This document shows positions 6,090 to 61,871 of a stretch of DNA of 64,000 bases, one piece after another. Source of the DNA: a virus (taxonomy: Duplodnaviria > Caudoviricetes); the IMG/VR virus record IMGVR_UViG_3300028197_000002, one strand, 5' to 3'. Every line of letters starts with the position of its first letter. The stretch's first letter is position 1. The notes under the pieces are model-generated. The model was not told the DNA's origin. It worked only from the letters and a program-made list of their open reading frames with translations, and did no database searches. Made by a program: the position numbers and the translations under genes.

Positions 6090-6752
6090 ATGAATATTAA
6101 CATCCCACCTTTTTATGCTTATATTCGTAGAGAGCATATGTTTGCCTACGAGAGTAATTTTGGAGAGTTTGAATATTGTTATGTTTTTGGAGCTAGAAGC
6201 CCTGCTGGAAGGGCTACGATGTTTCATTGCATGACAGAAGGAGGCGCACAAAGAGCAAACGTTCCTATTTCCGCCTTAGTCCACAATACAGATGATGAGG
6301 GTGGCTGGCAAGATCCTGAAGATTTAAGTTTAGAAGAGTTGCAACTTTGGGATTCATTTGGCAATAACATGAATGTTGTAGTTTTTGATTATTTGGCCTT
6401 TAAAAGGTGTCGAGTTGTATTTAGAGATAAAAGAGAAATTTGGGGAACTTATTTGATGACGTTTGATTGGGAAGACAACCCATATACAGATGCTCCTCAA
6501 GACTATAAGAATGCTCATCTTATAAAGTTAGATAATGGTTGCTTTGCTCTTCAACCCAATAATAGAATACTTTGGAGAGATAGTAATTTCATTACAAATC
6601 CATTAGATATTGATAATCTACCTAAATATAAAGTAGATAAAAAAGAGTTTGTTTGTGAAGTCTCAGATAGATGGACAGCGGAAGATACTGATTGTTTTTA
6701 TTATGATATTATAAATCATAATGACAAGGAAAATAGTGAAATCGACTCATGA
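6090..6752 (+). CDS. conserved phage hypothetical protein
   Basis: NIPPFY.YIRRE...HLIKLDNG.FALQPNNRI pattern recalled from phage proteins of unknown function. Confidence 0.65.
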   Translation: MNINIPPFYAYIRREHMFAYESNFGEFEYCYVFGARSPAGRATMFHCMTEGGAQRANVPISALVHNTDDEGGWQDPEDLSLEELQLWDSFGNNMNVVVFDYLAFKRCRVVFRDKREIWGTYLMTFDWEDNPYTDAPQDYKNAHLIKLDNGCFALQPNNRILWRDSNFITNPLDIDNLPKYKVDKKEFVCEVSDRWTAEDTDCFYYDIINHNDKENSEIDS

Positions 6753-6942
6753 TTATGTAGTGGGACTCATAAGACCCACTACTAATTCTATTATTAAAGA
6801 TGTAAGAATTCCACGAAAAGTTTTTAAAGGCGTTGATTGTGGTGATTTTCTTACCATGAGTCAGGTGATTGATGAATGGCTTTTAAAGGATGGATTTGAA
6901 GGCTTTGCTGTTTGGAGCATGAAAATGGTTCCGAGAAATTAG
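6721..6942 (+). CDS. hypothetical protein
   Basis: ORF track, packed in operon. Confidence 0.5.
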   Translation: MTRKIVKSTHDYVVGLIRPTTNSIIKDVRIPRKVFKGVDCGDFLTMSQVIDEWLLKDGFEGFAVWSMKMVPRN

Positions 6943-6995
6943 CTTTACTTCTTTTTTTTTTAAGATAGAATATGTTGGAATAAAATATCATTATT

Positions 6996-7355
6996 TTGAG
7001 GGAATTTGCCATGAGTAAGTTAATTGATGGCGGATTTCCAATTTACATTCTTGATGACGACTCTATAGAATATTTGCAAGAAGATTGCGATCACTCAAGA
7101 TTTTGGAGTGAAACGGTCAGTAAAAAAGTTTCTCAAAACACAGGCATACCCTTGAGAATTTTAATTGATATGCCGTATTGTCAAAGAAGAGCTAGAGTTG
7201 TTGGAAGTAGGCTTTATTACGGCGAAAAGATGTCTGCTTCTCTTTTTAATAAAATAAAGAATATTTTAGAAATGGATTTGGTTTTGGTTCATGATGAACA
7301 TGAATCAAGATGTAAAATTAGCTTGATGCAATTCAATGGAATGAAAAGAATTTAA
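6996..7355 (+). CDS. hypothetical protein
   Basis: ORF track; probable ATG at 7011 after GAGGG. Confidence 0.6.
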   Translation: MREFAMSKLIDGGFPIYILDDDSIEYLQEDCDHSRFWSETVSKKVSQNTGIPLRILIDMPYCQRRARVVGSRLYYGEKMSASLFNKIKNILEMDLVLVHDEHESRCKISLMQFNGMKRI

Positions 7356-9582: not shown

Positions 9583-9903
9583 ATGTCGAAAGATTTAGAT
9601 TCAATTTTTGCAGATTGGTTTGCAAAGAAATCTGAGAAAAAAGTCAATAAAATTGAAAAAAAATGGATTAAGGGCAATGAGCCTAATGATCCCGATGAAG
9701 ATTGCGGTGGCGATCATTGGCATGTTAATGAAATGATGCATTGTGGAGAGGCGTATGATATGACTTGGGACAATGCTAAAGAAGCATTTTTAGCTGGGGC
9801 TAATGGAGAAGAATGGGAGATGAGTATGAGCAACTCTCTGTTTTGTGATTTAGATGAAGTTATTTCAGATGCTTATGAACAAGGTAAAAAGGAGAATGAA
9901 TAA
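9583..9903 (+). CDS. hypothetical protein
   Basis: ORF track, stop-start coupling with next gene. Confidence 0.6.
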   Translation: MSKDLDSIFADWFAKKSEKKVNKIEKKWIKGNEPNDPDEDCGGDHWHVNEMMHCGEAYDMTWDNAKEAFLAGANGEEWEMSMSNSLFCDLDEVISDAYEQGKKENE

Positions 9904-10406
9904 TGGGTTGGGAAGTTAAAAATAATCAGTTTTTTTGTAACACAAGCGATACTTTTTTCGGCCCTTATTTAGATGAGTCAATTTGGCCCGACATGGATTG
10001 GGGATGGGATCAACCTAAGACTAGACTTTTTTATGATTGTTTTTGTGATTTTCTTGAAACGAAACCCGTAAAAGGTTTAACAGGAGATGATCCGAGGAGC
10101 TTTTCCAAAAAACAGTTGGAAAAAGTAGTTGGTCTATGGGAAGAACTTTGGATGCGACTAGAAATTGCAGTTGCAGATTTGCCATCTACTGCAAAAGAAA
10201 TGGGACTAAACCTTTCGGATAACATTAGTTCTTCTGAGAATTTATTTCGTTATATTTACGATTCTCATCAAAAAGCCTTGAAGAAAGTTGCTAAAAAGAA
10301 AGTTGCTAAAAAGAAAGTTGCTAAAAAGAAAGTTGCTAAAAAGAAAGTTGTTAAAAAGAAAGTTGTTAAAAAGAAAGTAAAGAAAAAGACTGTTAGGAAA
10401 GGTTAG
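9903..10406 (+). CDS. hypothetical protein with histone H1-like KKVAK tail
   Basis: C-terminal (KKVAK)n repeats. Confidence 0.65.
   Translation: MGWEVKNNQFFCNTSDTFFGPYLDESIWPDMDWGWDQPKTRLFYDCFCDFLETKPVKGLTGDDPRSFSKKQLEKVVGLWEELWMRLEIAVADLPSTAKEMGLNLSDNISSSENLFRYIYDSHQKALKKVAKKKVAKKKVAKKKVAKKKVVKKKVVKKKVKKKTVRKG
10281..10379 (+). repeat. 15-bp coding tandem repeat (AAGAAAGTTGCTAAA) x~6.5
   Basis: Units at 10281, 10296, 10311, 10326, 10341, 10356 and partial 10371. Confidence 0.95.
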
Positions 10407-10409
10407 ATA

Positions 10410-12485: not shown

Positions 12486-13214
12486 ATGGAAAGTTTTAAC
12501 AATTGGCTTATAAGAGAGCAAAGTAGCAAAAAAACAGTTTTATCTGTATTTGACTTCGATGGAACAATAGCAAATGTCCCAGAAAAACCTAGTTCAGATG
12601 ATAAGAAGCATCATTGGGATGGAAAAGATTGGTGGGGTTCGTCTGCTTCTTTAGAGCCTCCTTTCTATGATGGTTGGGTCAATGATGAAGTTGTGAGTGC
12701 TTTTAAAAAAGCCAAATCTGATCCTGAAACACATGCTATTCTTCTCACTGGAAGAAGAGGTGTTAATTCTCATGCTGTAAGGACTGTTCTTCGCAATCAA
12801 GGTCTTCATGGCAGAAGGATTATTCCTGATTCTAATCAAAAAGAAAAAAATAAGTACAAAGATCTTATAGATCAAAAAAAAGATATTCCTCATAAAATGA
12901 ATCATGATTCTCATGATGAGTATTTTAGTGGAGATCATAGAACCGAGCCTAAGTATCCTATTGATCCTAATAGTAAAAAAGGCAAACCAGCAGGTGATAC
13001 AATGAGTCACAAGACTTATGTAGTTAAAAATTTAATGCATGATGGGATCAGAGAAGTTCACTTTTGGGATGATAGAGATGATCATGTTGACAATTGGATC
13101 AAGTTGGCAAAAGAACTAAAAGAAAAATATTCTAATTTAAAAATAATTTTACATAAAGTAAATCCTCCTAGTTCTTCAAAACAGAAAGCCAAGATTGATC
13201 ATATTAATATTTAA
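12486..13214 (+). CDS. Swiss-army-knife RNA-repair HAD phosphatase (HAD_SAK-like)
   Basis: VFDFDGTI (DxD), WW....L, ILLTGR, FWDDR; N-term MESFNNWLIRE. Confidence 0.8.
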   Translation: MESFNNWLIREQSSKKTVLSVFDFDGTIANVPEKPSSDDKKHHWDGKDWWGSSASLEPPFYDGWVNDEVVSAFKKAKSDPETHAILLTGRRGVNSHAVRTVLRNQGLHGRRIIPDSNQKEKNKYKDLIDQKKDIPHKMNHDSHDEYFSGDHRTEPKYPIDPNSKKGKPAGDTMSHKTYVVKNLMHDGIREVHFWDDRDDHVDNWIKLAKELKEKYSNLKIILHKVNPPSSSKQKAKIDHINI

Positions 13215-13225
13215 AGGATATAACA

Positions 13226-13597
13226 ATGAGTTACACAGCACTTGTTTTAGACAAAGATTCTAGAGATAAGTTGATTTCTAGATTCAAAGATGACATCCCA
13301 GAAGGATGGAAAGTTATTGCACATCACATGACAATAAATATGGGAGATGCAGAAGGCGGTCCTGCTGAAAATATGGTTGGGGATGAAGCGCCTTTAACTG
13401 TAAAGACATTTGCTAAAGATGATTTAGTTATGGCGGTTGGAGTTGTTTCGCCTGTTCCAAGTAAAAATGATATAAAACACATCACTTTAGCCGTCAATAG
13501 AAAAGAAGGAGGGAAGCCTTTTTTTAGCAACAAGTTGAAAGATTGGAATTCAGTTGCCCCTCTGGTTTTAAAAGGTCTTGTCAAGGTTGTTAATTAG
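13226..13597 (+). CDS. 2H phosphoesterase (tRNA-ligase cyclic phosphodiesterase-like)
   Basis: Two HxT motifs HHMTI and HITL; Y.ALVLD...L; KP..SNKL..W. Confidence 0.8.
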   Translation: MSYTALVLDKDSRDKLISRFKDDIPEGWKVIAHHMTINMGDAEGGPAENMVGDEAPLTVKTFAKDDLVMAVGVVSPVPSKNDIKHITLAVNRKEGGKPFFSNKLKDWNSVAPLVLKGLVKVVN

Positions 13598-13651
13598 CCA
13601 ACTAATCTTTTATGAAATTTGCATTTGACAATGATGCCAATTGAAATTTGT

Positions 13652-14536
13652 TTAAGTATCGCATTGCCCAAGGATTTTTTTATCGGCGTGAGTTGAGTTT
13701 TGTTGGTTATATTTAAAATTGTTTAAAATCATTAAAGTTTCTTTTATCCAATCTTGTTTCGAATTTGTTTTTTTCATAACTAATGAACGAAATCCTTCTG
13801 GAGGATGTTCATCATTATCAGAAAACCACAACAACTCTGGATTTACCAACAAATTAACAAGATTATTTTTTTTATAATAATCATAAAATTCTGGAACTTT
13901 AAAAGGATGATTTTCTTCGTAAGCAACACCAAGAAGCATAGGCCAAGCTATTTCTAAAGTCATAGAAAATTGATAATAATTATCGTTATAAGAAAGAACG
14001 TTGAAAATATGTTGCCAAAAACTTTTTGGGAATCTTTTAATAGTCTCGCTTTTCACTATGCATTGTGAAGATGGAGGAAAACAAACAAATGATGGTGGTG
14101 TCATTACTATATTTAAATTCATGTAATTCCACATTTCTTTAAACTGATATAGGTAGTTGTTTCTTTTTTCAAAATTATAAATGGCAGTAGTTTTTGAATT
14201 CCAATGATTCTCTATATCTCCATTCAAATTATAAAAATGATCCTTCAATTTAATTTTTTTTAATTTTTCAAAATTATGTGACATTGAAAATTGTTGATGG
14301 AATGAATTTTCGTGACCATGTATAAATCCTACATATTCAGGCATTTCATTCCAACGAGTCAAAATATAATGAATATAAGATCTAAATTCCTCCGCCCCCA
14401 CATTTTCAATTTTTTCAAAATTCTTTATTGGCAAGTTCTTTTTAGATTTGGAAACTACCAAATAATCAATCCCAGATTTTTCTATCCAAGAGATTTCTTC
14501 ATTATAATGAGATGAAACTATTATCAAGTCGTTCAT
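13652..14536 (-). CDS. DUF3431 family protein (GT-A-like)
   Basis: IVSSHYNEEISWI, N.G.E..SYIHYI..RW..MP....FIHGH...HQ. Confidence 0.8.
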   Translation of the reverse strand: MNDLIIVSSHYNEEISWIEKSGIDYLVVSKSKKNLPIKNFEKIENVGAEEFRSYIHYILTRWNEMPEYVGFIHGHENSFHQQFSMSHNFEKLKKIKLKDHFYNLNGDIENHWNSKTTAIYNFEKRNNYLYQFKEMWNYMNLNIVMTPPSFVCFPPSSQCIVKSETIKRFPKSFWQHIFNVLSYNDNYYQFSMTLEIAWPMLLGVAYEENHPFKVPEFYDYYKKNNLVNLLVNPELLWFSDNDEHPPEGFRSLVMKKTNSKQDWIKETLMILNNFKYNQQNSTHADKKILGQCDT

Positions 14537-14590
14537 AAATTTATTATAGTATAAAAATCTTTTTGTTTACTTGTGGGATGAAAAAAGGTC

Positions 14591-14649
14591 TTAATATTAA
14601 AAACAAAAGTGATTTAAGTTTTTGACTTTAGAAGTATTAATTATTATTT
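14591..14649 (+). repeat. polar repeat copy C1
   Basis: 14599-14649 identical (51 bp) to 15874-15924; 14591-14630 matches 15062-15101 with 1 mismatch. Confidence 0.95.
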
Positions 14650-15021
14650 GGCGGCTTTGAGTTCTGCCAAATTCTGCGCCGTTTCGACGAGGCGATCCCA
14701 ATTTTCCTCTATGTACGCCGGAGGCCCACCCATATCGGCCTGTGCCACTGCTATCTCTTCAGTAGGAACCATCTCGATAGCATCCCAAGGACAAACTTTA
14801 ACATCATACATTTTACCCTTATTACCGGGAACATGAATGCATTGTTCACAACCTATACAAGTAGATAGATCAATCTCGCACCATTGAGTTACTCCCTGTT
14901 TTATCTGGAATATACAATCGACAGGGCATACTTCTAAACAAGCCTCACAACCGGTGCAATTATCTGCCTGAATGATTGCTAATTCTTTTGGAATCTTTTT
15001 TCTCACTGCTTTTTTTGCCAT
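14644..15021 (-). CDS. 2x[4Fe-4S] ferredoxin (host-derived)
   Basis: CTGCEACLEVCP and CIGCEQC...VCPWDAI; GC about 50% in 14641-14760 by hand count. Confidence 0.93.
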   Translation of the reverse strand: MAKKAVRKKIPKELAIIQADNCTGCEACLEVCPVDCIFQIKQGVTQWCEIDLSTCIGCEQCIHVPGNKGKMYDVKVCPWDAIEMVPTEEIAVAQADMGGPPAYIEENWDRLVETAQNLAELKAAK

Positions 15022-15035
15022 AAATCAACCCCGTC

Positions 15036-15101
15036 TGCACAAATCTATCTGTAATTAGATATTAATATTAAAAATAAAAGTGATTTAAGTTTTTGACTTT
15101 A
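15036..15101 (+). repeat. polar bipartite repeat copy C2
   Basis: TGCACAAAT (15036)-N36-TGATTTAAGTTTT (15081). Confidence 0.9.
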
Positions 15102-15161
15102 TAATGAAAAAATTTTTTTTAATGGTACAATAGAATCTTAACTTTGGGATAATTTCAATCA

Positions 15162-15833
15162 ATGTATGACGCAATTGTGATTAGTGACATTCATTTAGGA
15201 AGTAGCGTTTGTGAAGTCAAACAGCTTTATGCTTTTTTGAACAGTGTGGCATGTGATACTAAAAAAATTATTATTAATGGTGACTTTTTTGACAATTTAA
15301 ACTTTAGTCGTTTGAAAAAAAGTCATTGGGATGTTTTGTCATCTCTCAGAAGGATGAGTAAAGATGTTGATATTATTTGGATTAGAGGAAATCATGATGG
15401 AGAGGCCGAAATAATTTCGCATTTAATAGGTTTGGATTTTAAAGACGAGTATTCATTTTTTAGCGGCAGAAAAAATATTCTTTGTCTCCATGGTGATAAA
15501 TTTGATGATTTTATTTTCAAATATCCAAAAACTACTAAAGTCGCAGATTTTATTTACAGAACTATTCAAAGATTTGATAAAAATTTTCTTCCCAGATTAA
15601 TTAAACACAGATCAAAAATGTACCTTAGATGCAATGAAAACATGATTTTGAATTCTGTGAGATATGCGAAACAAAAAGGAGCAGATATAGTTTGTCTTGG
15701 CCATACCCATCATGCTGTTATTGACAAAAAAGATAAGGATGTGTGGTATTACAATTCTGGATGTTGGACTGAAAAACAATGCTCTTATCTGTCTATTAAA
15801 GATGGTGTAGTTGAGTTGAATTATTTTTCGTAA
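15162..15833 (+). CDS. calcineurin-like metallophosphoesterase (UDP-2,3-diacylglucosamine diphosphatase-like)
   Basis: SDIHLG, NGDFFD, RGNHD, LHGD.FD, GHTH, NSGCW. Confidence 0.88.
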   Translation: MYDAIVISDIHLGSSVCEVKQLYAFLNSVACDTKKIIINGDFFDNLNFSRLKKSHWDVLSSLRRMSKDVDIIWIRGNHDGEAEIISHLIGLDFKDEYSFFSGRKNILCLHGDKFDDFIFKYPKTTKVADFIYRTIQRFDKNFLPRLIKHRSKMYLRCNENMILNSVRYAKQKGADIVCLGHTHHAVIDKKDKDVWYYNSGCWTEKQCSYLSIKDGVVELNYFS

Positions 15834-15839
15834 TTATGT

Positions 15840-15924
15840 TGCACAAATATTTTTTATTTCTTTTTGATTGTGAAAAAACAAAAGTGATTTAAGTTTTTGA
15901 CTTTAGAAGTATTAATTATTATTT
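15840..15924 (+). repeat. polar bipartite repeat copy C3
   Basis: TGCACAAAT (15840)-N36-TGATTTAAGTTTT (15885). Confidence 0.9.
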
Positions 15925-16012
15925 AATCCTGTTTTTTTGGTATTTTGGGCAATTTGAAAAATATTGATAGCAAGATTATGTCGATTGTCATTCATTTGAA
16001 TGGCATTTTTGC

Positions 16013-16040
16013 TTGACCAAATTGTGAAAATCGGTACAAT
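16013..16040 (+). promoter_or_regulatory. host sigma-70-type promoter
   Basis: TTGACC-N16-TACAAT. Confidence 0.6.
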
Positions 16041-16112
16041 GGTCACTTCGCAACGGAGTGCGAATTTTCTAAAATTCGGAACTCTTTTCCTATTTGCCTA
16101 ACGGAGTGCAAA

Positions 16113-16334
16113 ATGCTTTTCTATGTTTCTTGTTCTAAAAAACAAACAATGATTCAATCAAAAACCCATAAAGATGCTGCTTTAAAATATATTTCTGACA
16201 ATAAAGATTATGGGAACATTATTTGCGTTTCACATCAAGAGATAAACCGTGACAATAGCGATTCTCAAGTTTTTTTCCTAGCAGATGCTTTAAAACCTGA
16301 AAAGAGCATTGAAAATTTTAGAGTTGTTTACTAA
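16113..16334 (+). CDS. hypothetical protein
   Basis: ORF track; GGAG RBS. Confidence 0.6.
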   Translation: MLFYVSCSKKQTMIQSKTHKDAALKYISDNKDYGNIICVSHQEINRDNSDSQVFFLADALKPEKSIENFRVVY

Positions 16335-16451
16335 ACAAATAGGTTGCAATTAAATAAAAAAAATATTTGTTTACTTTACTTTTAATAAAAATTTAACTAA
16401 AATATTATTACTTTCGCCAACTGACTATAAACTCAACAAAAAAAATACATC

Positions 16452-16463: not shown

Positions 16464-16594
16464 TAGTTGCTAAAGAGAGATATGGCACGATCAAATAAAA
16501 GTGCTGTGTCTTTTTTTGCCTTAAAACATCTACTTTACTTTTTGAAAATTTTAACCTAAAATATTTTTGATTTGACAATTAAAAAAAATCTAGC

Positions 16595-16606
16595 TAGTTT
16601 ATGGTT
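16595..16606 (+). promoter_or_regulatory. phage promoter motif (TAGTTTATGGTT)
   Basis: Family member; TTGACA at 16572 with 17-nt spacer. Confidence 0.7.
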
Positions 16607-16650
16607 TAGTTGTTAGGTCAAATTACTTGTTGTTCTTGAAAGGAACTCTA

Positions 16651-17646
16651 ATGCCTGCTACTAAGAAGAAGTCTGAGTCTGCTAAAGAAGTTAGTGTGCC
16701 TATGGCAGAAAGAAAGCCAAGGTCTAAGCTGATTGGTGTATTTGCAGGAAAAATGAAACCTGCTCCAAAATCCATCAAGAAAAATGAACGTCCTGTAATT
16801 GATTTGCCTAGAGAAATTCAAGAACAATTTGTTCGTTTTGCTGCAACTAAAAATCTGTTTGATGTTTTTGAAGATAGAAAGAAAGAGCAAACTGGTCTTC
16901 TTTATTCATCTATTTTTGAAAAGTTTGTTGACCAATTATGGGCAACGAAGAAACAGCCTCAGAATCCATCTATTGTGGTAGAAACTAATGGCAAAGTTGA
17001 TGCCAAGGGTCAATTTATTGTTCAGGTGGGCAGTAAAGTTAAGATCAACATGCCTCCTGTTGATGAAGATGATGATTCCCCTGATGAAGTGATGATTGCC
17101 GCATTGGAAAACATGGGCGTTAAAAGAGAGAATGCTGAATCTTTGATTGAAAAAGAAGTTTCTTTTGTTCCTCAATGGTCGTTGAATTTTACCGAAATGC
17201 TTCATGGTGCTACTGTTGCAGGCAAGTTCCGAGAAGCTACTGATGGTCAAATCTCTGCTAGTGAAGCATTGTTTTCTTCTATTAAAGGCATGGATGAAAA
17301 TGGGGAAAGTCTTGATGCAAAAGGAAGACTTGCTTTGCTTAAAAAGTTTTCTGTAGAAGATTGGCAACTGCTTGCTAAGAATATTGATAGTCATACCTCC
17401 TACTATCCTCAATTACTTTCGGGTGGAGATTTTCTTGATCGAGTTTGCGATTATGCAGATTTCCGAGAAGAATTAGATGCTATTTTGACTATGTTCCGAC
17501 CTGTTCATTTTTGCCAGCGGGTAAAGTTCGCTGTAGACGCAACAGGTGAGGATCGTCAAAATAAATTGGTTGCCGAAGCAATTTCTGCAATCACTGGCGA
17601 AGAAAACAATCATGATATTCAATTATCATACATGGGTCGTTCATAA
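16651..17646 (+). CDS. hypothetical protein
   Basis: Long ORF, AAGGA RBS before ATG 16651. Confidence 0.75.
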   Translation: MPATKKKSESAKEVSVPMAERKPRSKLIGVFAGKMKPAPKSIKKNERPVIDLPREIQEQFVRFAATKNLFDVFEDRKKEQTGLLYSSIFEKFVDQLWATKKQPQNPSIVVETNGKVDAKGQFIVQVGSKVKINMPPVDEDDDSPDEVMIAALENMGVKRENAESLIEKEVSFVPQWSLNFTEMLHGATVAGKFREATDGQISASEALFSSIKGMDENGESLDAKGRLALLKKFSVEDWQLLAKNIDSHTSYYPQLLSGGDFLDRVCDYADFREELDAILTMFRPVHFCQRVKFAVDATGEDRQNKLVAEAISAITGEENNHDIQLSYMGRS

Positions 17647-19930: not shown

Positions 19931-19943
19931 AAAAAAATAAAAG

Positions 19944-19955
19944 TAGTTTGCGGTA
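19944..19955 (+). promoter_or_regulatory. phage promoter motif (TAGTTTGCGGTA)
   Basis: Family member. Confidence 0.8.
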
Positions 19956-25346: not shown

Positions 25347-26109
25347 AATGAATAAATCTGTTAAGAGTAGAATTATAGAACAATTTCAAAATGTGATTCT
25401 GTCAGAATCAAAAGTTACATTTTACAAAGACTATGACCGAAACAATGTTTTTATTGAAAAAGGTTCTACTGGTTACATAAAGAATTTCAAAGAACTTTGT
25501 GGAACTATAAGTCTTTTGAAATTTGAATTTTTTGAAACAAACGATGGCAGAGAATTTCCATATCGTGAAGTTAAACTTTTTCTTTTTGAAGCAGAAAAAC
25601 TTTTATGTGATTCCAGTTTGTTTCCATTTTTTTTCATACAAGGCAGTCAATTAGAAAACGGCATTCGAATTTCTAACTATGAATATTTAGAATACGTTTT
25701 TAATCATTCTTCCCATAGAGGAATATCAGATAGTAAAAAATTTGCTATGATCGCTGTAAAACATAAAACAAGACTTCCCAAAAAGATTGAGGAAGTAATT
25801 CTTGGCAACTATAAATTATCTAATCATTACTCAAGTGCTTTTGACATTAACTTGACTGAATTTCAACAAAAAGAATTTTTAAAAGATAAAACAGGAAGTT
25901 TTGCTGCAAAATATTCGATGGACTTGATAGATCGTCGAATAGAGGTTCCTGATTTCTTGCATAATTACTTGCTTTCTTTGAAGGCATTTGGGAATTTGTC
26001 TTCAATTGTAGAAATAAAGGGAAATGGCGAATTTGTTCCATCTTTAAATTATTTTGTTGAAATGTATATTAAAAAATCTGAAAATGAACATAAAAAAAAT
26101 TCAGAGTAG
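25333..26109 (+). CDS. LPxxxHN-family protein
   Basis: RIEVPDFLHNYLL; stop codon is the TAG of the next promoter motif. Confidence 0.65.
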   Translation: MKKCKMNKSVKSRIIEQFQNVILSESKVTFYKDYDRNNVFIEKGSTGYIKNFKELCGTISLLKFEFFETNDGREFPYREVKLFLFEAEKLLCDSSLFPFFFIQGSQLENGIRISNYEYLEYVFNHSSHRGISDSKKFAMIAVKHKTRLPKKIEEVILGNYKLSNHYSSAFDINLTEFQQKEFLKDKTGSFAAKYSMDLIDRRIEVPDFLHNYLLSLKAFGNLSSIVEIKGNGEFVPSLNYFVEMYIKKSENEHKKNSE

Positions 26110-26118
26110 TTTGCGGTA
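26107..26118 (+). promoter_or_regulatory. phage promoter motif (TAGTTTGCGGTA)
   Basis: Family member. Confidence 0.8.
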
Positions 26119-51520: not shown

Positions 51521-51826
51521 ATGCTCGAACATTTAAATGTAATAAGCAAATTTCAAAATTTAAAAAAGAATGAGACTTTAAAAGGTAGTGTAATTGAAAG
51601 GTACAAAGCTGCTCGTGTTGAACGATTGCGCGAACTATACTCAATTCATGAACCACTCTTAGAGAAGCGATGTATTTATGAGCATCCAAATGATGCGCGA
51701 TATAATTGCTATGCTATGTTCCCATTGAATGAGAATGAGATGAACAGTCCTTTTGATTTACCAGACTTTGAGAGTCACATGCCAGACCTAGATAATTTTT
51801 TGATAGATTCTGGGTTGCACAAATAA
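51521..51826 (+). CDS. hypothetical protein
   Basis: ORF track. Confidence 0.5.
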   Translation: MLEHLNVISKFQNLKKNETLKGSVIERYKAARVERLRELYSIHEPLLEKRCIYEHPNDARYNCYAMFPLNENEMNSPFDLPDFESHMPDLDNFLIDSGLHK

Positions 51827-51931
51827 CAAAACAAGTCTCCACCTTCTAAAAGTGAAAAGACATGTTAAGTACCGTGCTTTTATTTTTTATTAATTAATGG
51901 GTCATCTGCTAGTTATTAATAAAAAAACTGT

Positions 51932-52208
51932 TGCACAAATGAAACAACTTTCTGGATAGATCCTTTTTAGAAAAGTGATTTAAGTTTTTCGACTTGCAAT
52001 TAATTATAAATAATGCCTTATTTGATATTTAATAACTTTTGACCTTTATCCAGATTGCTTGCACAAATCCGGGGATATAAAAAAACAAACAAACCAGGCC
52101 TGGATGATTTAAGTTTTCCTCATAGCAATTAATTATAAATAAAGCATTAATTATAATTTAATAATCTTGACCTTTATCCGAGCGAAAGAAAAGGTTTGAC
52201 CTTTATCC
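51932..52208 (+). repeat. tandem ~128-bp degenerate repeat carrying bipartite elements C4 and C5 and three TTGACCTTTATCC 13-mers
   Basis: TGCACAAAT at 51932 and 52060; TGATTTAAGTTTT at 51976 and 52105; 13-mers at 52039, 52167, 52196. Confidence 0.85.
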
Positions 52209-55971: not shown

Positions 55972-56030
55972 AATATATATTTTAAAGTAATTTTTAAATA
56001 CAATAACAATATTGTTAAAAAAATAGAAAG

Positions 56031-56042
56031 TAGTTTGCGGTA
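56031..56042 (+). promoter_or_regulatory. phage promoter motif (TAGTTTGCGGTA)
   Basis: Family member. Confidence 0.8.
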
Positions 56043-56590: not shown

Positions 56591-56664
56591 GCCCCTATAG
56601 CTTAATTGGTTAAAGCAACGGTCTTTTAAACCGTCGAGTGTAAGTTCGAGTCTTACTGGGGGTA
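56591..56664 (+). tRNA. trnK: tRNA-Lys(TTT)
   Basis: Anticodon arm ACGGT-CTTTTAA-ACCGT; T-loop TTCGAGT; no CCA. Confidence 0.93.
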
Positions 56665-56678
56665 CATGTAAATTTAAA

Positions 56679-56706
56679 TTGACAGTTGAGTTATAATTAT
56701 TATAAT
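56679..56706 (+). promoter_or_regulatory. consensus sigma-70 promoter
   Basis: TTGACA-N16-TATAAT. Confidence 0.7.
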
Positions 56707-56773
56707 TAAAGCTCTCCCGAACAGGAAGCGTCCTTTCCCCTACACATTGATTGTGACCTTTCTGTTTAATAAA

Positions 56774-56816
56774 CCAGCCCTTTGGATAATGCTAGTCTAA
56801 AGGGCTGGTATTTTTT
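56774..56816 (+). terminator. intrinsic terminator
   Basis: CCAGCCCTTTGGA/TCTAAAGGGCTGG stem + T-run. Confidence 0.8.
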
Positions 56817-56818
56817 AA

Positions 56819-56889
56819 TACGGGGTGGTGTAATGGTAGCACAAGAGTTTTTGGTACTCTTTGTCGGGGTTCGAGTCCCTGCTCCGTAG
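56819..56889 (+). tRNA. trnQ: tRNA-Gln(TTG)
   Basis: Acceptor TACGGGG/CTCCGTA; anticodon arm AGAGT-TTTTGGT-ACTCT; no CCA. Confidence 0.9.
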
Positions 56890-56948
56890 CTTAAAAAAAT
56901 ATTTTATTTGAAAAAAAACAAGACTTAGTTTATTATAAATATATGAAA

Positions 56949-57303
56949 GGGGTCGTTCTGGTATCGACTGGATAAAAAGATACATGCTCGCAAGTAGTGG
57001 TTAATCGACAGGCCACTTAAAAAGTCGATTAAAACGCTTTAACTGGCGAAACTCAGTTAGCACTCGCCGCTTAGTATAGTGGTGACAGTTTTAGGAAGCG
57101 ATGAAGGGAGCGTCCAAAAAACTGCTGTAAAATCCTTCGGCTGTTAAGTTCGGTCAACGGGGACTTAACCTGAGATACGGTTGATCGGAAAGACGAATGT
57201 TGTTTGTTCTTTAGTCCTTTCTTAAAAATTATGAACAAAATAAACTTGTAGAAAGTGTGTGGAAAGTTATCTCAGGACAGGGGTTCGACTCCCCTCGACT
57301 CCA
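56949..57303 (+). ncRNA. ssrA: tmRNA; tag (A)GETQLALAA at 57045-57074
   Basis: Ala-type acceptor GGGGTCG/CGACTCC with G3.U70, T-arm GGGG-TTCGACT-CCCC, tag ORF ending ALAA-TAG; TATAAATA at 56934. Confidence 0.93.
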
Positions 57304-57334
57304 CTTTTTTTTAATTTAATATCTATATAATTTT

Positions 57335-57466
57335 ATGGATATTAACATGATAATAAATATAGCTCTTGGTGTAGTTTTAGGAAGATTTCTAGGCTGGTTT
57401 TTATTAATAATTTGGAATGGCTTTTTGGGCTGTATCCGAGATACTAAAAGAAAATTTAAAAAATAA
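57335..57466 (+). CDS. small membrane protein (43 aa, not in ORF track)
   Basis: CTATATA upstream; hydrophobic helix + basic tail. Confidence 0.5.
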   Translation: MDINMIINIALGVVLGRFLGWFLLIIWNGFLGCIRDTKRKFKK

Positions 57467-57473
57467 TCAAAAG

Positions 57474-57485
57474 CAGTTTGCGGTA
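57474..57485 (+). promoter_or_regulatory. phage promoter motif (CAGTTTGCGGTA)
   Basis: Family member. Confidence 0.75.
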
Positions 57486-57524
57486 ATTTTAGTCAACCCG
57501 ATCTAAACCTTACAGGGAATTTCT

Positions 57525-58220
57525 ATGCCCAGAACTAAAAATCCAAAAATTAGTCCTGATGAACAGACTTGGCTTTCTGCAATCGACACTTCGTTATCCC
57601 AATCCGGCTCATATCGAATGGACTGGGAAGAACGCAACATTTTGAACAATAAGTTTCTTGCTATAAAAACGCACGTTCAAAAGGGCGGTGACTTTTCTAT
57701 TGGTTGGGATGCTTTCTTTGATAAGATATTTTCTTCTATTGATCGTGAATTTTTAAATCAAAAGTGTGGTATTTGTTATGCTTATGCCCGAAAGCAAGGG
57801 CGATTAAAATTAAATCAAGAGAAGATTTTTTTAAAAGAGGCATCAAATGGATGGAGAAGTGCCAGTAACGTTTACAAGTATGCTCGTTATGTAATGCGTG
57901 GACGACTCCATGCTGATGTAGAGGCAGTAATAGACTTTGGCAAATGCTATAAATATCCAGAATGGCTCAACAAGATGGATTTGCCTTATGAAGACGTATT
58001 GATGAAGAATACTACTGCTGCTTATCATTTTTATTGTTCAAACTTTTATCTTCCAGATAATATTCACAACATGATGATTGCAAGCAAACTTGGTGGCGAT
58101 AATTATGCTGCGGCTTACTTTAAAGAAAAAGAAAAGGTTGAAACTTATTTGTTGACAGCATTAAACAATGTAGACAAGACTATGACTGTTGGAGATTTTG
58201 TTAAAAAAATTATGAAGTAG
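57525..58220 (+). CDS. LPxxxHN-family protein
   Basis: YKYARYVMRGRL, YLPDNIHNMMI, D.TMTVGDFV tail. Confidence 0.75.
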   Translation: MPRTKNPKISPDEQTWLSAIDTSLSQSGSYRMDWEERNILNNKFLAIKTHVQKGGDFSIGWDAFFDKIFSSIDREFLNQKCGICYAYARKQGRLKLNQEKIFLKEASNGWRSASNVYKYARYVMRGRLHADVEAVIDFGKCYKYPEWLNKMDLPYEDVLMKNTTAAYHFYCSNFYLPDNIHNMMIASKLGGDNYAAAYFKEKEKVETYLLTALNNVDKTMTVGDFVKKIMK

Positions 58221-58229
58221 TTTTTTGTA
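58218..58229 (+). promoter_or_regulatory. phage promoter motif variant (TAGTTTTTTGTA)
   Basis: Family variant; TAG is the upstream stop. Confidence 0.55.
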
Positions 58230-58258
58230 TAAATATCTCCAACATTAAGGAAACCAAA

Positions 58259-58486
58259 ATGGAACAATTACAAAGATACATCGAACTGATACAGGCTTAC
58301 ATTGGTCTTGAATACGATCTTTCAGAACAAGACAAGCTAGATATTAGTGGAATGAATGGTTTAATTGACGAAATAATTGCTCCAGCCTATTTTGAAGGCG
58401 AACCAGTTTGTAATTTAGCTGGTATACTGGTTGCTAATCTGCGAAGGATGAAGGCTGGCTTTCCATCGACGTTCACCGACGATTAA
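58259..58486 (+). CDS. hypothetical protein
   Basis: AAGGA RBS. Confidence 0.65.
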   Translation: MEQLQRYIELIQAYIGLEYDLSEQDKLDISGMNGLIDEIIAPAYFEGEPVCNLAGILVANLRRMKAGFPSTFTDD

Positions 58487-58524
58487 AAGATGAGGGTCAA
58501 GTTTAATTTAAATTAAATTGATGT

Positions 58525-58609
58525 GCCGAAGTGGCGGAATTGGCAGACGCAACGGACTTAAAATCCGTTGTCCGTAATGGACGTGCGGGTTCAAGTCCCG
58601 CCTTCGGTA
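58525..58609 (+). tRNA. trnL: tRNA-Leu(TAA)
   Basis: Long variable arm; ACGGA-CTTAAAA-TCCGT; no CCA. Confidence 0.95.
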
Positions 58610-58622
58610 CTTTTACAGACAT

Positions 58623-58691
<69 letters not shown>

Positions 58692-58696
<5 letters not shown>

Positions 58697-58910
58697 CTTT
58701 AATTTAATCTTTATTTATGGAAATAGAAAGATGAAATCTGATGACTATTGGAAAAGCATAAAAGAGGATTGGAAAAAACATACGATTGAATTAAAAGATA
58801 ACAAGTGGATTTTAAAATTTAAAAATGATAAATTAAAAGATCATACTTTCACCAGCAAAACAAAATTAGAAGAATATTTAGATTGGTTGGAAAACGCTAC
58901 TTATGTCTGA
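58692..58910 (+). CDS. hypothetical protein
   Basis: ORF track; true start probably ATG 58731. Confidence 0.5.
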
Positions 58911-59391
58911 CAAAGGTCTGCTGGATGAAATACGTTTGTCGGAAGCGGGTTGTTCTCAACCCAAACTCAGCTACATATTTAAAACTTTAAAAGCAAATAA
59001 TATAACCGAACTCGAAGTTAATTTTGATGGTCATAGTGATGACGGACACATGCGGTTTACTAATGCAGTAGGTGATCCAAGCAAAGTAAAGGAAATTACA
59101 CTTTACAACGAAGTTAGTCCAAATACATTCTTGGATGAACCAACACCTTTTGCATCCCAAAGTTCAGGAGCAACATATCCGGATGCATCAGCAACCTTAT
59201 GTGATATTATTTGGGAATCTGTGTATTCGATTTTCGATTACAAGGATATTAGCTGGTGCGGAGGTCGTGGGAATAAAGGTTATTTAAAATTTAATTCTTT
59301 TAAAAATAAAGTTGAAATAAAATATTTAAAATATGTAGAAAGCTATGATGAGATCACTTTCAACCAAATTTCAGGAAACATTATAAATTAA
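58903..59391 (+). CDS. DUF6878-like protein
   Basis: I..LEV.FDG..DDG...W....G..G.L.F; adjacent to DUF6915-like gene. Confidence 0.5.
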   Translation: MSDKGLLDEIRLSEAGCSQPKLSYIFKTLKANNITELEVNFDGHSDDGHMRFTNAVGDPSKVKEITLYNEVSPNTFLDEPTPFASQSSGATYPDASATLCDIIWESVYSIFDYKDISWCGGRGNKGYLKFNSFKNKVEIKYLKYVESYDEITFNQISGNIIN

Positions 59392-59408
59392 AAATAAATA
59401 AATTGGAT

Positions 59409-59420
59409 TAGTTTGCTGTA
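59409..59420 (+). promoter_or_regulatory. phage promoter motif (TAGTTTGCTGTA)
   Basis: Family member. Confidence 0.65.
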
Positions 59421-59451
59421 TTGTTATCAGCAACAACATTTGGGAGAAAGT

Positions 59452-59922
59452 ATGGCTAATCCATATCATCATGCGGTATCGAGTGCAAAGAAGTGGGGCG
59501 GAGAGCCAGAGGATTATCAATCAATCCACGATTGGTTTGACTGTTCTAAGGAAATGTGGGCTGATTTTCGCCATCGTGCTTTGAGGCATCATTCTCAGGG
59601 CATTTTTGAAGCAGAGCGTATATTTGGTCATACTATTAGAATTAGCGGGAAACGTAAACTTCGTTGGTTTGAGAAGGTAGTTTCTTTTATTACCGGCAAA
59701 GAAATAAAAACTGGTCGGAAAGTGCCTGTACGCTGGATTGGCGAACAGCATGTGAAAGAGGATTGCGGATTTATCCCTTCGATCCAGGATTGGTTTAGGC
59801 ACATAAAGCCTCAAAGATGGATGGGACAACCACCTGTTCGATTAGAAAAGGCTTTAGAAAAGGTAAATTCTACCGAAGATTGGCAGAATCATGTGGGTGA
59901 GAAAATTGATGTAGCAATATGA
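59452..59922 (+). CDS. DUF6915-like His-rich protein
   Basis: MANPYHHAVSSAKKWGG..EDY..IHDWFD.SK...AD.RHRALRHH..GIF..E..FG...VPVR.IGEQHV.ED.G.IP. Confidence 0.75.
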   Translation: MANPYHHAVSSAKKWGGEPEDYQSIHDWFDCSKEMWADFRHRALRHHSQGIFEAERIFGHTIRISGKRKLRWFEKVVSFITGKEIKTGRKVPVRWIGEQHVKEDCGFIPSIQDWFRHIKPQRWMGQPPVRLEKALEKVNSTEDWQNHVGEKIDVAI

Positions 59923-60014
59923 AAAATTTAAATAGTTTACTCTTTTGAAAGATACAGATATAATAAATCCCCCTTGGACATTCCGTTCAAGATAATTTTT
60001 TTAAGGAGAATTAA

Positions 60015-60413
60015 ATGAAGTTAGTTTTAACAGCCGCCCTTTGCCTTGTTCCTGCTCTTGCTTTTGCTGGTGAAAAGCCAACAAGTGAGGAACCAACAGT
60101 TACTGCAACAGCCGCAGTAGATCAGGAAGTGGTTGAGGAAGTTGAAAGTGGCTGCTCGGACGGTGATTGCAACCTACGCACTCGTCGTGTATGGCCCCTT
60201 AGAGTAGTAGAAGTATTCGACTGCAAAGACGGATGCTGCAACTCTAGGATGCGTGTCGTTACGCCTAGATGCAGAACCACTTGTTGCGAAGAAGAAGCAT
60301 GTTGCGAAAGTGCATGTGAATGTGAAGACTCATGTGATGATGCAACTCGTTGTCGCCCTCGCCTTCGCCTTTTCAGAAGGTGGAGAACAACAAAAACAAG
60401 TTGCTGTAACTGA
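60015..60413 (+). CDS. secreted Cys-rich protein (Planctomycete-like)
   Basis: Signal peptide, CC-rich, RLFRRW. Confidence 0.65.
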   Translation: MKLVLTAALCLVPALAFAGEKPTSEEPTVTATAAVDQEVVEEVESGCSDGDCNLRTRRVWPLRVVEVFDCKDGCCNSRMRVVTPRCRTTCCEEEACCESACECEDSCDDATRCRPRLRLFRRWRTTKTSCCN

Positions 60414-60451
60414 ATTATATTATATTAAAATAAATTATTATAATTAATTTT

Positions 60452-60492
60452 AAAGAAGATGCGTTCTTTCTAGTTCGCATCTTCTTTTTTTT
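60452..60492 (+). terminator. intrinsic terminator
   Basis: AAAGAAGATGCG/CGCATCTTCTTT + T-run. Confidence 0.8.
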
Positions 60493-60507
60493 TAAATTTT
60501 TCTAAAG

Positions 60508-60519
60508 TAGTTTGCGGTA
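60508..60519 (+). promoter_or_regulatory. phage promoter motif (TAGTTTGCGGTA)
   Basis: Family member. Confidence 0.8.
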
Positions 60520-60582
60520 CTAATGTGGGAATAGATGTTCTAGCCCCGTTGTAAAAAGTTTTTAAAAAGGTAAAAGTATTTA

Positions 60583-60948
60583 ATGAAATTAAATGCAAGG
60601 CAATTAGCTGAAAATTTAGGAATTTCATACGTGGTTTCATCAGGCTTGATTAAACTGCTTTTGGAAATGAAACAAATTGAATTAGCTGAAAAGGTTTTCC
60701 ATAGTAGTGGAAAAGGAAAGCCAACAAAAATTTATAATTTTCCAGAAGAAGTATCCATTGCTATCAAAGAAGTTGTTCAGGCAGAGCCTGTGGTTGACGC
60801 CCTAGACTTCACTATGGTTGAGGAACCAGTTGCAGAACCAGTTGCAGAAGAAGTTGTAGACAACCGAAAAATGGTTACAGCAAATGCCGGTGAAAGTTGG
60901 TATTACGAAGACGAAGATGATGACGACGACTACGTTGATGTTGATTAA
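60583..60948 (+). CDS. winged helix-turn-helix protein with acidic tail
   Basis: ARQLAENLGISY...GKGKPTKIY. Confidence 0.7.
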   Translation: MKLNARQLAENLGISYVVSSGLIKLLLEMKQIELAEKVFHSSGKGKPTKIYNFPEEVSIAIKEVVQAEPVVDALDFTMVEEPVAEPVAEEVVDNRKMVTANAGESWYYEDEDDDDDYVDVD

Positions 60949-60965
60949 ATATAAAATATCAAAAT

Positions 60966-60977
60966 TAGTTTACAGTA
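60966..60977 (+). promoter_or_regulatory. phage promoter motif (TAGTTTACAGTA)
   Basis: Family member. Confidence 0.7.
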
Positions 60978-61065
60978 TTGTCAGGTGACGATCTGACCGT
61001 TCGAGTCTACCTTGCGGTGCGGGCGAAGAACGATAAAAGGATAACCGCTTTTTAATTTAACCTAA

Positions 61066-61710
61066 TTGCTGATTTTTGATGAAATGAAAGAATATATTTA
61101 TCAATTAAAAATAAATGGCTACACGTTTCCAGCCGTTGCTTTGTGGAATAGCCTCGGTTTTTATTGTGGATACTTAGGCATTGATGAAACCAATGGTTTA
61201 CACGTATCTGAAGAAGATAGACCTGACAACGGCCCTCGTAGCTCAGTTCGTTCCGGCCACGGTTATGTTGATATCAACGTACATGGAGGGGTTACTTTTT
61301 CTGGTTATTTCTCAATTTTGGATAAAGCTTACCATGGATGCTTAGGCCATTTTGTTGAACCCGTTTGTAATAGTCATGAAGAAATTAAAGTTAGTTCAAT
61401 GCTGGTGTCGGATCATCGAGAGTTTGCAGAAGATGCTTGTCAAAGCTTTACTTGGCTGGGTTTTGATTGCGGACATCATAATGACAGAACTAGCCTGAAT
61501 CCTGATGGCAAGGAAAGAAACATAGATTTTGTTTTAAATAATATTAAAATATTAGCAAAAGAAGCTGCTGGATCTAGTCATGAAATATTTCAGCGTCACA
61601 CGCATTTAATGAAAATAACTGAACAAGAACATAACATGATGATGGCTTTAGCTGTGACAGGGGAATGTTGGGCAGAAAAATACATTCGGGATTTAAAAGT
61701 TAGTAACTAA
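61066..61710 (+). CDS. conserved phage protein with C-terminal HNMM motif
   Basis: CGYLGI, INVHGGVTF, WLGFDCGH; tail EQEHNMMMA. Confidence 0.7.
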   Translation: MLIFDEMKEYIYQLKINGYTFPAVALWNSLGFYCGYLGIDETNGLHVSEEDRPDNGPRSSVRSGHGYVDINVHGGVTFSGYFSILDKAYHGCLGHFVEPVCNSHEEIKVSSMLVSDHREFAEDACQSFTWLGFDCGHHNDRTSLNPDGKERNIDFVLNNIKILAKEAAGSSHEIFQRHTHLMKITEQEHNMMMALAVTGECWAEKYIRDLKVSN

Positions 61711-61722
61711 TTTAGATTAAAT

Positions 61723-61794
61723 GGCCCTATCGTCTAGTGGTTAGGACACGGGATTTTCATTCCCGTAACCGGAGTTCGACTCTCCGTAGGGTCA
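61723..61794 (+). tRNA. trnE: tRNA-Glu(TTC)
   Basis: CGGGA-TTTTCAT-TCCCG; no CCA. Confidence 0.95.
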
Positions 61795-61798
61795 CTTT

Positions 61799-61871
61799 GC
61801 TGCTGTAACTCAGTTGGTAGAGTAGCTGATTTGTAATCAGCCTGTCGTCAGTTCGAATCTGACCAGCAGCT
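61799..61871 (+). tRNA. trnT: tRNA-Thr(TGT)
   Basis: GCTGA-TTTGTAA-TCAGC; acceptor GCTGCTG/CAGCAGC; no CCA. Confidence 0.95.

Follow-up and report, generated by a model that had tools for sequence, protein, structure and literature searches.

Conserved polar intergenic modules at the edges of a variable ferredoxin–phosphoesterase block in a very large marine phage and their likeness to PeSL cassettes

The closest described counterparts of the locus studied here are the promoter-early stem-loop (PeSL) cassettes of T4-type phages (Arbiol et al. 2010, PMC2839356; Comeau et al. 2014, PMC4122927). PeSLs are intergenic repeats of about 100 bp located in the hyperplastic accessory-gene parts of large T4-like genomes. 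Each begins at the stop codon that ends the preceding gene and features a strong sigma-70 promoter (−35 box, 17 nt, −10 box) with an AT-rich upstream region and a stable stem-loop that serves as terminator or attenuator. Exchange between neighboring PeSLs also gives rise to mini-circles. The ORFs that they flank are inserted, deleted and replaced among close relatives. Recombination between two PeSLs has been predicted to delete the intervening DNA and to leave a single chimera (Arbiol et al. 2010, PMC2839356). A second described system, the integron with its attC and attI sites, also combines polar repeated sites between genes with a variable content and an empty site. How huge marine phages gain and exchange host-like auxiliary genes is poorly documented for uncultured lineages. 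An initial annotation of the phage DNA described here proposed that polar repeats bracketing two single host-like genes are an integron-like platform for gene capture, and the present analysis compares the locus with both systems.

The analysed stretch of DNA (64,000 nucleotides, hereafter the window) belongs to a very large phage. It is AT-rich (33% GC) and its genes include those for RIIA, an ATP-dependent DNA ligase, a ClpX-like ATPase and an SNF2 helicase; seven tRNAs and a tmRNA are also encoded. A 302,863-bp ENA contig, k141_471647 of ERZ27249049, matches the window exactly at every overlap checked, and the sequence was extended to window coordinate 80,382 using two loci of this contig. 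Searches of the phage database gave no match, either for the region 13600–16400 with blastn or for the ferredoxin with tblastn. No matches were obtained in IMG/VR with the A-B and A-C box patterns defined below, no relatives were found there by single-protein scans with the two flanking proteins, and Rfam contributed no family at the ferredoxin locus or the 52-kb locus. The search for the bipartite motif thus gave nothing in IMG/VR, and relatives came from metagenomes. One metagenome pattern scan and exact-protein look-ups produced a population set of about 40 contigs covering the ferredoxin locus, and a wider set of about 60 assembled contigs was inspected for recombination junctions. Two metagenome matches, L001 and L003, were set aside as chance: both are GC-rich and unrelated to the window, and the L003 match lies inside an ORF. 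Four GTDB matches (Bordetella and Alcaligenaceae MAGs, a Eubacteriales MAG and Helicobacter), also unrelated to the window, were likewise treated as chance.

The locus has the layout that was originally described, namely C1, ferredoxin (−), C2, metallophosphoesterase (+) and C3, and Pfam identifies both genes. The repeat copies contain two short conserved boxes, box A (TGCACAAAT) and box B (TGATTTAAGTTTT). The window has five exact copies of box A (15036, 15840, 51816, 51932 and 52060) and five of box B (14610, 15081, 15885, 51976 and 52105), all on the plus strand. The number expected by chance in simulated sequence was 1.46 for box A, with both strands combined, and 0.07 for box B. The boxes form four A-B pairs, with distances from start to start of 45, 45, 44 and 45 bp, in C2, C3 and two copies 36 kb away; the simulated sequence gave no such pairs, and the fixed-spacing motif noticed at the outset is therefore upheld.

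C1 (14579..14649, plus strand) is a module copy without box A. Its box B lies at 14610–14622, and its right end provides the stop codon of the ferredoxin gene. C2 (15035..15120, plus strand) comprises box A (15036–15044), a 36-bp spacer, box B (15081–15093) and the sequence TTGACTTTA, with no hairpin; it occupies the divergent gap between the ferredoxin and phosphoesterase genes. C3 (15839..15924, plus strand) comprises box A (15840–15848), a 36-bp spacer that is hypervariable in sequence and fixed in length, box B (15885–15897) and the same right arm as C1. In all three copies box B directly abuts TTGACTTTA, which is a shortened form of a third box, box C, described below. The 51-bp identity reported between C1 and C3 is exact (14599–14649 = 15874–15924) and stops at TTATTT, i.e., at the stop codon and last Lys codon of the ferredoxin gene.

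The repeats were examined for transcription signals and for folding. A sigma-70 consensus scan gave no promoter-like hit within the shared core, either in C1 or in C3. The sole promoter-like site near C2 (15104–15131, score 9/12) is mostly outside the repeat. The TTGACT found in the repeat is followed 17 nt on by TATTTA or TTTTTA. A sigma-70 promoter inside the repeat core was ruled out by the consensus scan and by manual spacing checks on both strands. The next gene has a sigma-70-like promoter of its own (TTGACC-16 nt-TACAAT, 16013..16040, plus strand), which is separate from C3 and conserved in 3/3 haplotypes. Boxes A and B are not mutually complementary. Folding of the segments from A to B revealed no significant structure in C2, C3, C4, C5 or the 66-kb copy (z from −0.2 to +1.1), and no attC-type fold of single-stranded DNA was found in C2–C5 on either strand (z from −1.5 to +0.8). 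A candidate small ORF running from box A to a TAA in box B was dropped as a conserved feature, the frame being open in C3 only.

The gene between C1 and C2 (14644..15021, minus strand) encodes a 4Fe-4S dicluster ferredoxin of 125 aa according to Pfam and is inverted relative to the modules. It is compositionally foreign: its GC-content is 43% and its GC3 is 0.36, compared with 0.21–0.29 in its neighbors. The portion of about 50% GC noted earlier corresponds to the 3′ third, at 53%. The named cellular relatives of the ferredoxin belong to Planctomycetota (62–69% identity). A 90%-identical ferredoxin stands in another AT-rich, virus-like context, in the order DUF1501 gene, ferredoxin, DUF5824 gene and Ogg-HhH gene, with no repeats; nucleotide similarity to this second context (84%) is limited to the ORF.

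The gene between C2 and C3 (15162..15833, plus strand) encodes an LpxH-like metallophosphoesterase (Metallophos) of 223 aa, as indicated by Pfam, tblastn against phages and its homologues. Its GC-content of 31% is typical of the phage. Homologues with 65–77% identity occur in many marine contigs, and in one distant relative the phosphoesterase gene ends a compact glycan-gene cluster and overlaps its upstream neighbor, with no ferredoxin and no module. The named cellular relatives are again Planctomycetota (Gemmataceae), at about 50% identity. Taken together, composition and the contexts in relatives indicate that the phosphoesterase is an old resident of a glycan-gene island, at the edge of which the ferredoxin locus stands, and that the ferredoxin is a newcomer. 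The occurrence of the genes without repeats, which the initial annotation named as evidence against its proposal, is seen in part: more distant relatives carry each of the two genes repeat-free. Within the phage lineage, the ferredoxin and phosphoesterase genes are found together in every contig with either of them, the exceptions being short contigs that end inside the locus. This does not agree with the proposal that genes are captured one at a time.

Comparison across the relatives confirmed that gene content at the locus varies. Three haplotypes were found in independent metagenomes, of which H1 is that of the window; samples containing them include JGI 3300025120, 3300001460 and 3300017708 and ENA ERZ23498598 and ERZ27249049. 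The variable left neighbor of the block in H1 is a DUF3431 gene (Pfam PF11913; 13652..14536, minus strand). In H2 this gene is replaced by a sulfotransferase gene (minus strand, 219 or 228 aa), a further module designated X, a 14-bp VNTR and a signal-peptide ORF of 117 aa (plus strand) that terminates inside C1. H3, present in at least four samples, has a sulfotransferase gene of 239 aa (minus strand), module X and then C3 directly, with neither ferredoxin nor phosphoesterase. The DUF3431 gene shows no similarity to the sulfotransferases of the other haplotypes. A 3′ remnant of the 117-aa ORF, which is intact in H2, persists in H1 at 14549..14583 (plus strand), where the H1/H2 alignment contains 4 mismatches and then a 47-bp deletion. 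It is within this remnant, and not at a repeat, that the DUF3431 replacement has its left edge. H3 is a genuine empty two-module site at the ferredoxin locus; since it retains two whole modules and no chimera, it is not the product of a simple crossover between X and C3.

Only 4 SNPs separate H1 from H2 across 14584–15848 (99.7% identity). The left flanks of this shared block are unrelated, and the right flanks are 71–95% identical. Divergence starts at 15849, the first base past box A of C3. Here 11 of 23 spacer positions differ with no change in length, after which identity resumes for 55 bp, comprising box B and the right arm. Through X, and rightwards from box A of C3, H2 is nearly identical to H3. 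The identity pattern of H1 and H2 means that the block from C1 to the phosphoesterase stop codon was recently moved or homogenized between diverged lineages, with its right edge at box A. One metagenome assembly is broken at the locus: a 259-kb contig ends just past a 2H phosphoesterase gene (13226–13597), and a 64.5-kb contig begins within the 5′ end of the ferredoxin gene, a little upstream of C2. One part of the original proposal stands, in that the repeats form edges of a gene block that close relatives may have, lack or exchange; a dedicated integron-like site is not supported.

The repeats, including the copies 36 kb away, belong to a larger family of modules. The region at 51.8–52.2 kb holds three tandem units and not the pair first described, the extra box A at 51816 overlapping a stop codon and being followed by a degenerate box B. 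The first unit (51815..51875, plus strand) consists of this box A, overlapping the stop of the ORF 51521–51826, a variable segment and the degenerate box B. C4 (51931..52051, plus strand) has box A at 51932, box B at 51976 and box C at 52039–52051. C5 (52059..52208, plus strand) has box A at 52060, box B at 52105, box C at 52167–52179 and a second box C at 52196–52208. Box C, TTGACCTTTATCC, is thus present here in three copies. A T4 late-type element, TATAAATA, seen within C4 and C5 was dropped, since it is not conserved in the relatives.

Further modules occur downstream, and the boxes are spread over at least 65 kb. Type 1 modules (51931, 52059 and 65975), the last of which was added by the extended sequence, consist of box A, 35–36 nt, box B, 43–63 nt and box C. 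In type 2 modules (74775, 76285 and 77595), box A leads into a hairpin and a T-rich tail, and box C follows box A at a distance of exactly 101 nt. These hairpins are strong, with energies of −20 to −27 kcal/mol (z from −6 to −8), and the T-rich tail sits where type 1 has box B, with one tail closely resembling box B. Exact box C is found in 13 copies at 52–79 kb, on the plus strand, all of them between genes and upstream of a phage promoter motif. Box A follows stop codons: it lies 7 nt past that of the phosphoesterase gene and 7–8 nt past those of two array genes, and it overlaps the stop at 51824–51826. In three relatives with 84–88% overall identity, boxes A, B and C are nearly invariant, and the segment from A to B varies in sequence and not in length.

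The tandem set at 51.8–52.2 kb had been read as an empty site. The same three relatives (3/3) keep the tandem units without inserted genes, and the set therefore looks more like intergenic DNA with a function than like a vacant docking site. The initial annotation also offered a replication or packaging element as an alternative, in which the tandem units and the three box C copies would be iterons of a replication origin, or a pac site, and the copies at 14.6–15.9 kb would be secondary. The tandem direct repeats and AT-rich stretches at 52 kb, conserved in relatives, fit such an element. However, cumulative GC skew is monotonic, with no change of sign or slope in the window, and the at least 13 occurrences of box C on one strand over 27 kb, intergenic and upstream of the promoter motif, fit a transcription signal better. 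This alternative gains no support from the comparison, and hardly any weight can be given to it.

The copies at the ferredoxin locus are mosaic. C1, C2 and X share one left part (TTAATATTAAAA...), and that of C3 differs. Among the right arms, that of C1 equals that of C3, and that of C2 equals that of X, the latter ending with the tail of the C1/C3 arm. In every combination, the left and right parts join at box B, which is invariant. Such reassorted sub-parts would be expected if the copies had repeatedly undergone exchange or gene conversion with one another.

A direct trace of recombination was found in the downstream array. The relative L035 lacks 1.3 kb, containing two genes, between two type 2 modules of the window's genome. 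Its single remaining module is chimeric, with the left flank and box A derived from the first module and the rest from the second, which places the crossover inside box A. This deletion is a module-by-module crossover. Three junctions were mapped, namely those of the H2/H3 indel, of the L035 deletion and of the point where the H1/H2 identity block ends, and each of them falls within the 10-bp box A or on its border. Two of the three involve the same box A and may represent one historical event. Box A offers only 10–12 bp of identity, and the same modules contain longer identical tracts, of 16 bp at box C and of 55 bp at box B with the right arm.

These positions bear on the possibility that boxes A and B, spaced by 35–36 bp, are a true recombination or cleavage signal recognized by a putative phage enzyme, so that the locus would be a platform with defined cut points. 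Such a signal would account for every mapped junction lying at box A in the presence of longer identical tracts, for the A-B start spacing being held at 44–45 bp as the spacer sequence turns over, for the single polarity of all copies and for the existence of gene-free tandem modules. However, the junctions sharing one box A may go back to a single event, and C1 bounds the block without box A. The ferredoxin gene is inverted, and the two genes are never apart within the phage lineage. Pfam found no integrase, resolvase, other recombinase, transposase or homing-nuclease domains in the approximately 55 ORFs of the window, and the repeats have no attC-like fold. No circle junction or reciprocal C1/C3 product was seen among the roughly 60 assembled contigs, in which rare forms would not show. 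In addition, a stop codon always precedes box A, and the surviving junctions could owe their position to nothing more than selection for intact genes. A dedicated signal of this kind is considered quite improbable. Against its integron-like version, as first suggested, speak the missing attC fold, the lack of a recombinase domain in these ORFs, the absence of box A from C1 and the position of the left edge of the DUF3431 replacement away from a repeat.

It was also considered whether the repeats are purely regulatory, as promoters, operators or terminators. Junctions would then lie near them since only intergenic DNA tolerates junctions, and the identity of C1 and C3 would be a local duplication made when the ferredoxin was inserted. 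Conservation of the boxes in relatives, well above the local background, agrees with this, as do the other indels within the same 5 kb that have no modules at their edges. So does the arrangement of C1, C2 and X, each of which lies 60–74 nt upstream of a minus-strand gene start and has the common left part; this shared part and position hint at a leftward regulatory function. On the other hand, the chimeric module of L035 requires recombination between two modules, sub-parts of the copies have been reassorted, and the 99.7% identical block ends, to the base, at a module box. An explanation by regulation alone is therefore rather unlikely.

The reading that we favor, with moderate confidence, is that the modules are gene-boundary cassettes with a primarily regulatory role, whose conserved boxes also act as portable homology for general recombination in the manner of PeSLs. 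Comparison of the genomes demonstrates that the modules are conserved, polar and modular, and that the gene blocks of the strains differ with their edges at the modules. A full module begins with box A (here TTGCACAAAT) right after a stop codon, followed by the segment of about 35 nt, fixed in length and variable in sequence, which in some copies is a strong terminator hairpin. The T-rich tail, equivalent to the box B site, an AT-rich stretch and box C complete the module, and the promoter of the next gene comes after it. The proposed function is predicted from this structure. Box A with the hairpin or tail may close one transcription unit, and box C may prepare the next, probably as the site of a DNA-binding factor upstream of the phage promoter motif. 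The ferredoxin-locus copies are shortened variants without the hairpin, in which TTGACTTTA abuts box B.

Since the conserved boxes recur between unrelated accessory genes, short patches of identity are available at many gene boundaries. T4-type homologous or short-homology recombination, presumably the machinery concerned, could cross over at the boxes, within one genome or between co-infecting strains, and as a side effect would insert, delete and exchange the genes lying between modules. The stretch C1-ferredoxin-C2-phosphoesterase would then be one exchanged block, and the 51-bp identity of C1 and C3 would be duplicated homology at its ends.

Some observations fit the cassette reading less well. 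The weakest step of the mechanism is the putative regulatory role of the ferredoxin-locus copies, whose core has neither a sigma-70 promoter nor a hairpin and next to which the following gene has a conserved promoter of its own; this counts against such a role there. Plain homologous recombination would not be expected to place junctions at the short box A in preference to longer tracts. Nearby gene differences also exist without module edges: at about 13214 a 105-aa gene is present or absent with no module beside it, and on its left side the DUF3431 replacement ends away from any module.

The locus offers a natural before-and-after series, in which an empty two-module site can be set against a block-filled site in two diverged lineages. 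It extends shuffling of the PeSL type from coliphages and vibriophages to an uncultured marine phage of about 300 kb, whose modules share no sequence features with PeSLs. The contributions of the comparison are a hairpin-less, box B-containing module subtype, a series of three haplotypes that includes an empty site, a block end defined to the base and separate histories for the two enclosed genes. That junctions recur at a single 10-bp box gives a concrete, testable hint of a process that may be more specific than homology.

Compared with iteron-type origins, the window has no unique locus with a skew switch, and the boxes are dispersed over at least 65 kb. The likeness to integron attC and attI sites concerns the polar repeated sites between genes, the variable content and the empty site. 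No IntI-type tyrosine recombinase was found among the approximately 55 ORFs of the 64-kb window. Unlike attC, the sites lack the form of an imperfect palindrome and show no single-strand folding. The block consists of two divergent genes with an internal site, instead of a single co-oriented, promoterless ORF moving alone, and one boundary copy, C1, lacks half of the bipartite motif.

Unlike PeSLs, the ferredoxin-locus copies lack both the strong sigma-70 promoter with its AT-rich upstream region and the stable stem-loop, whereas the sister modules at 74–77 kb have hairpins; with these two defining features missing, the copies are not classed as PeSLs. What is conserved instead is a set of three boxes (A, B and C) that are specific to the phage and keep fixed spacings. 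Crossovers map to a 10-bp box and not, as in PeSLs, in the AT-rich region, and one enclosed gene is inverted. As with PeSLs, the repeats are intergenic and about 100 bp long, begin at the stop codon of the gene before them and are situated among accessory genes, in hyperplastic parts of a large T4-like genome, and the ORFs that they flank are inserted, deleted or replaced among close relatives. The ORFs next to the repeats differ between such relatives, as reflected in the three haplotypes and the assembly break at the locus. The deletion in L035 corresponds to the conversion of two elements into one chimera; the empty haplotype of the ferredoxin locus, in which two modules are kept, fits this only partly. 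On the features tested, the module system works not in an integron-like way but like PeSL cassettes.

The sulfotransferases of haplotypes H2 and H3 (compared at L004 593–1279 and L005 2453–3172, respectively, on metagenome contigs of relatives) are 60% identical overall, while both termini are nearly identical. The gene is an internal mosaic, and this pattern suggests that its central part was swapped by recombination. Haplotype H2 contains an additional gene of 105 aa that separates the HAD gene from the 2H gene (at about position 13214 of the window), and neither edge of this additional gene bears a copy of the intergenic module. The upstream HAD gene is about 100% identical between H2 and H1, the haplotype of the window, whereas the downstream 2H gene is 95% identical. 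This position is a further edge of recombination at which no repeat occurs.

On the + strand of the window, between 18873 and 62225, an A-tract that precedes AGTAGTTT(G/A)CGGTA recurs at least 25 times (e.g., 19941–19955, 26104–26118 and 56028–56042), with start codons located 10–30 nt downstream. The first 18.8 kb of the window contain no copies of this A-tract and motif combination. The motif probably serves as the promoter for a transcription class specific to the phage. In the downstream array, box C, one of the conserved parts of the modules, usually lies 30–50 nt 5′ of the motif. The extension past the window (L031) carries two paralogous 176-aa genes with 74% nucleotide identity, at 6597–7332 and 16485–17230 (about 66.5–67.3 kb and 76.4–77.2 kb in window coordinates). 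Their similarity begins at the upstream promoter motif and extends downstream through box C to the following promoter motif, which suggests that gene and module were duplicated as a whole unit.

In haplotype H2, module X is directly followed by a VNTR with the 14-bp unit TTTATATGTAAACC, the copy number of which varies by sample from 3.3 to 7.3 (L004 1375–1500, L037 2421–2466, L039 2365–2466 and L013 2791–2878). After the VNTR, the same word recurs as a perfect palindrome of 13 bp. The core ACCTTTAT is common to this word and box C, and hence one DNA-binding protein may recognise both. Another tandem array, of at least seven 15-bp units AAGAAAGTTGCTAAA, occupies 10266–10409 within ORF 9903–10406 and encodes a KKVAK repeat tail. 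In H1, the stretch between module copy C3 and the promoter at 16013 holds a hairpin and T run resembling a terminator (15986–16012); this feature lacks conservation in H2 and H3.

The phage carries a tmRNA (56949–57304) with the tag peptide GETQLALAA amid six tRNA genes (56591–61871). The tmRNA region is among the few stretches that the distant relative L053 shares with the window.

For the two genes at 14644–15833, the closest named cellular homologues of the ferredoxin belong to Planctomycetota (Pirellulales, Anatilimnocola; 62–69% identity), and those of the LpxH-like phosphoesterase to Gemmataceae of the same phylum (about 50% identity). In another virus-like contig, a 90%-identical ferredoxin adjoins a DUF1501 gene. 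Based on these homologues and on this gene neighbourhood, the phage may infect a planctomycete host, despite its GC-content of 33%.
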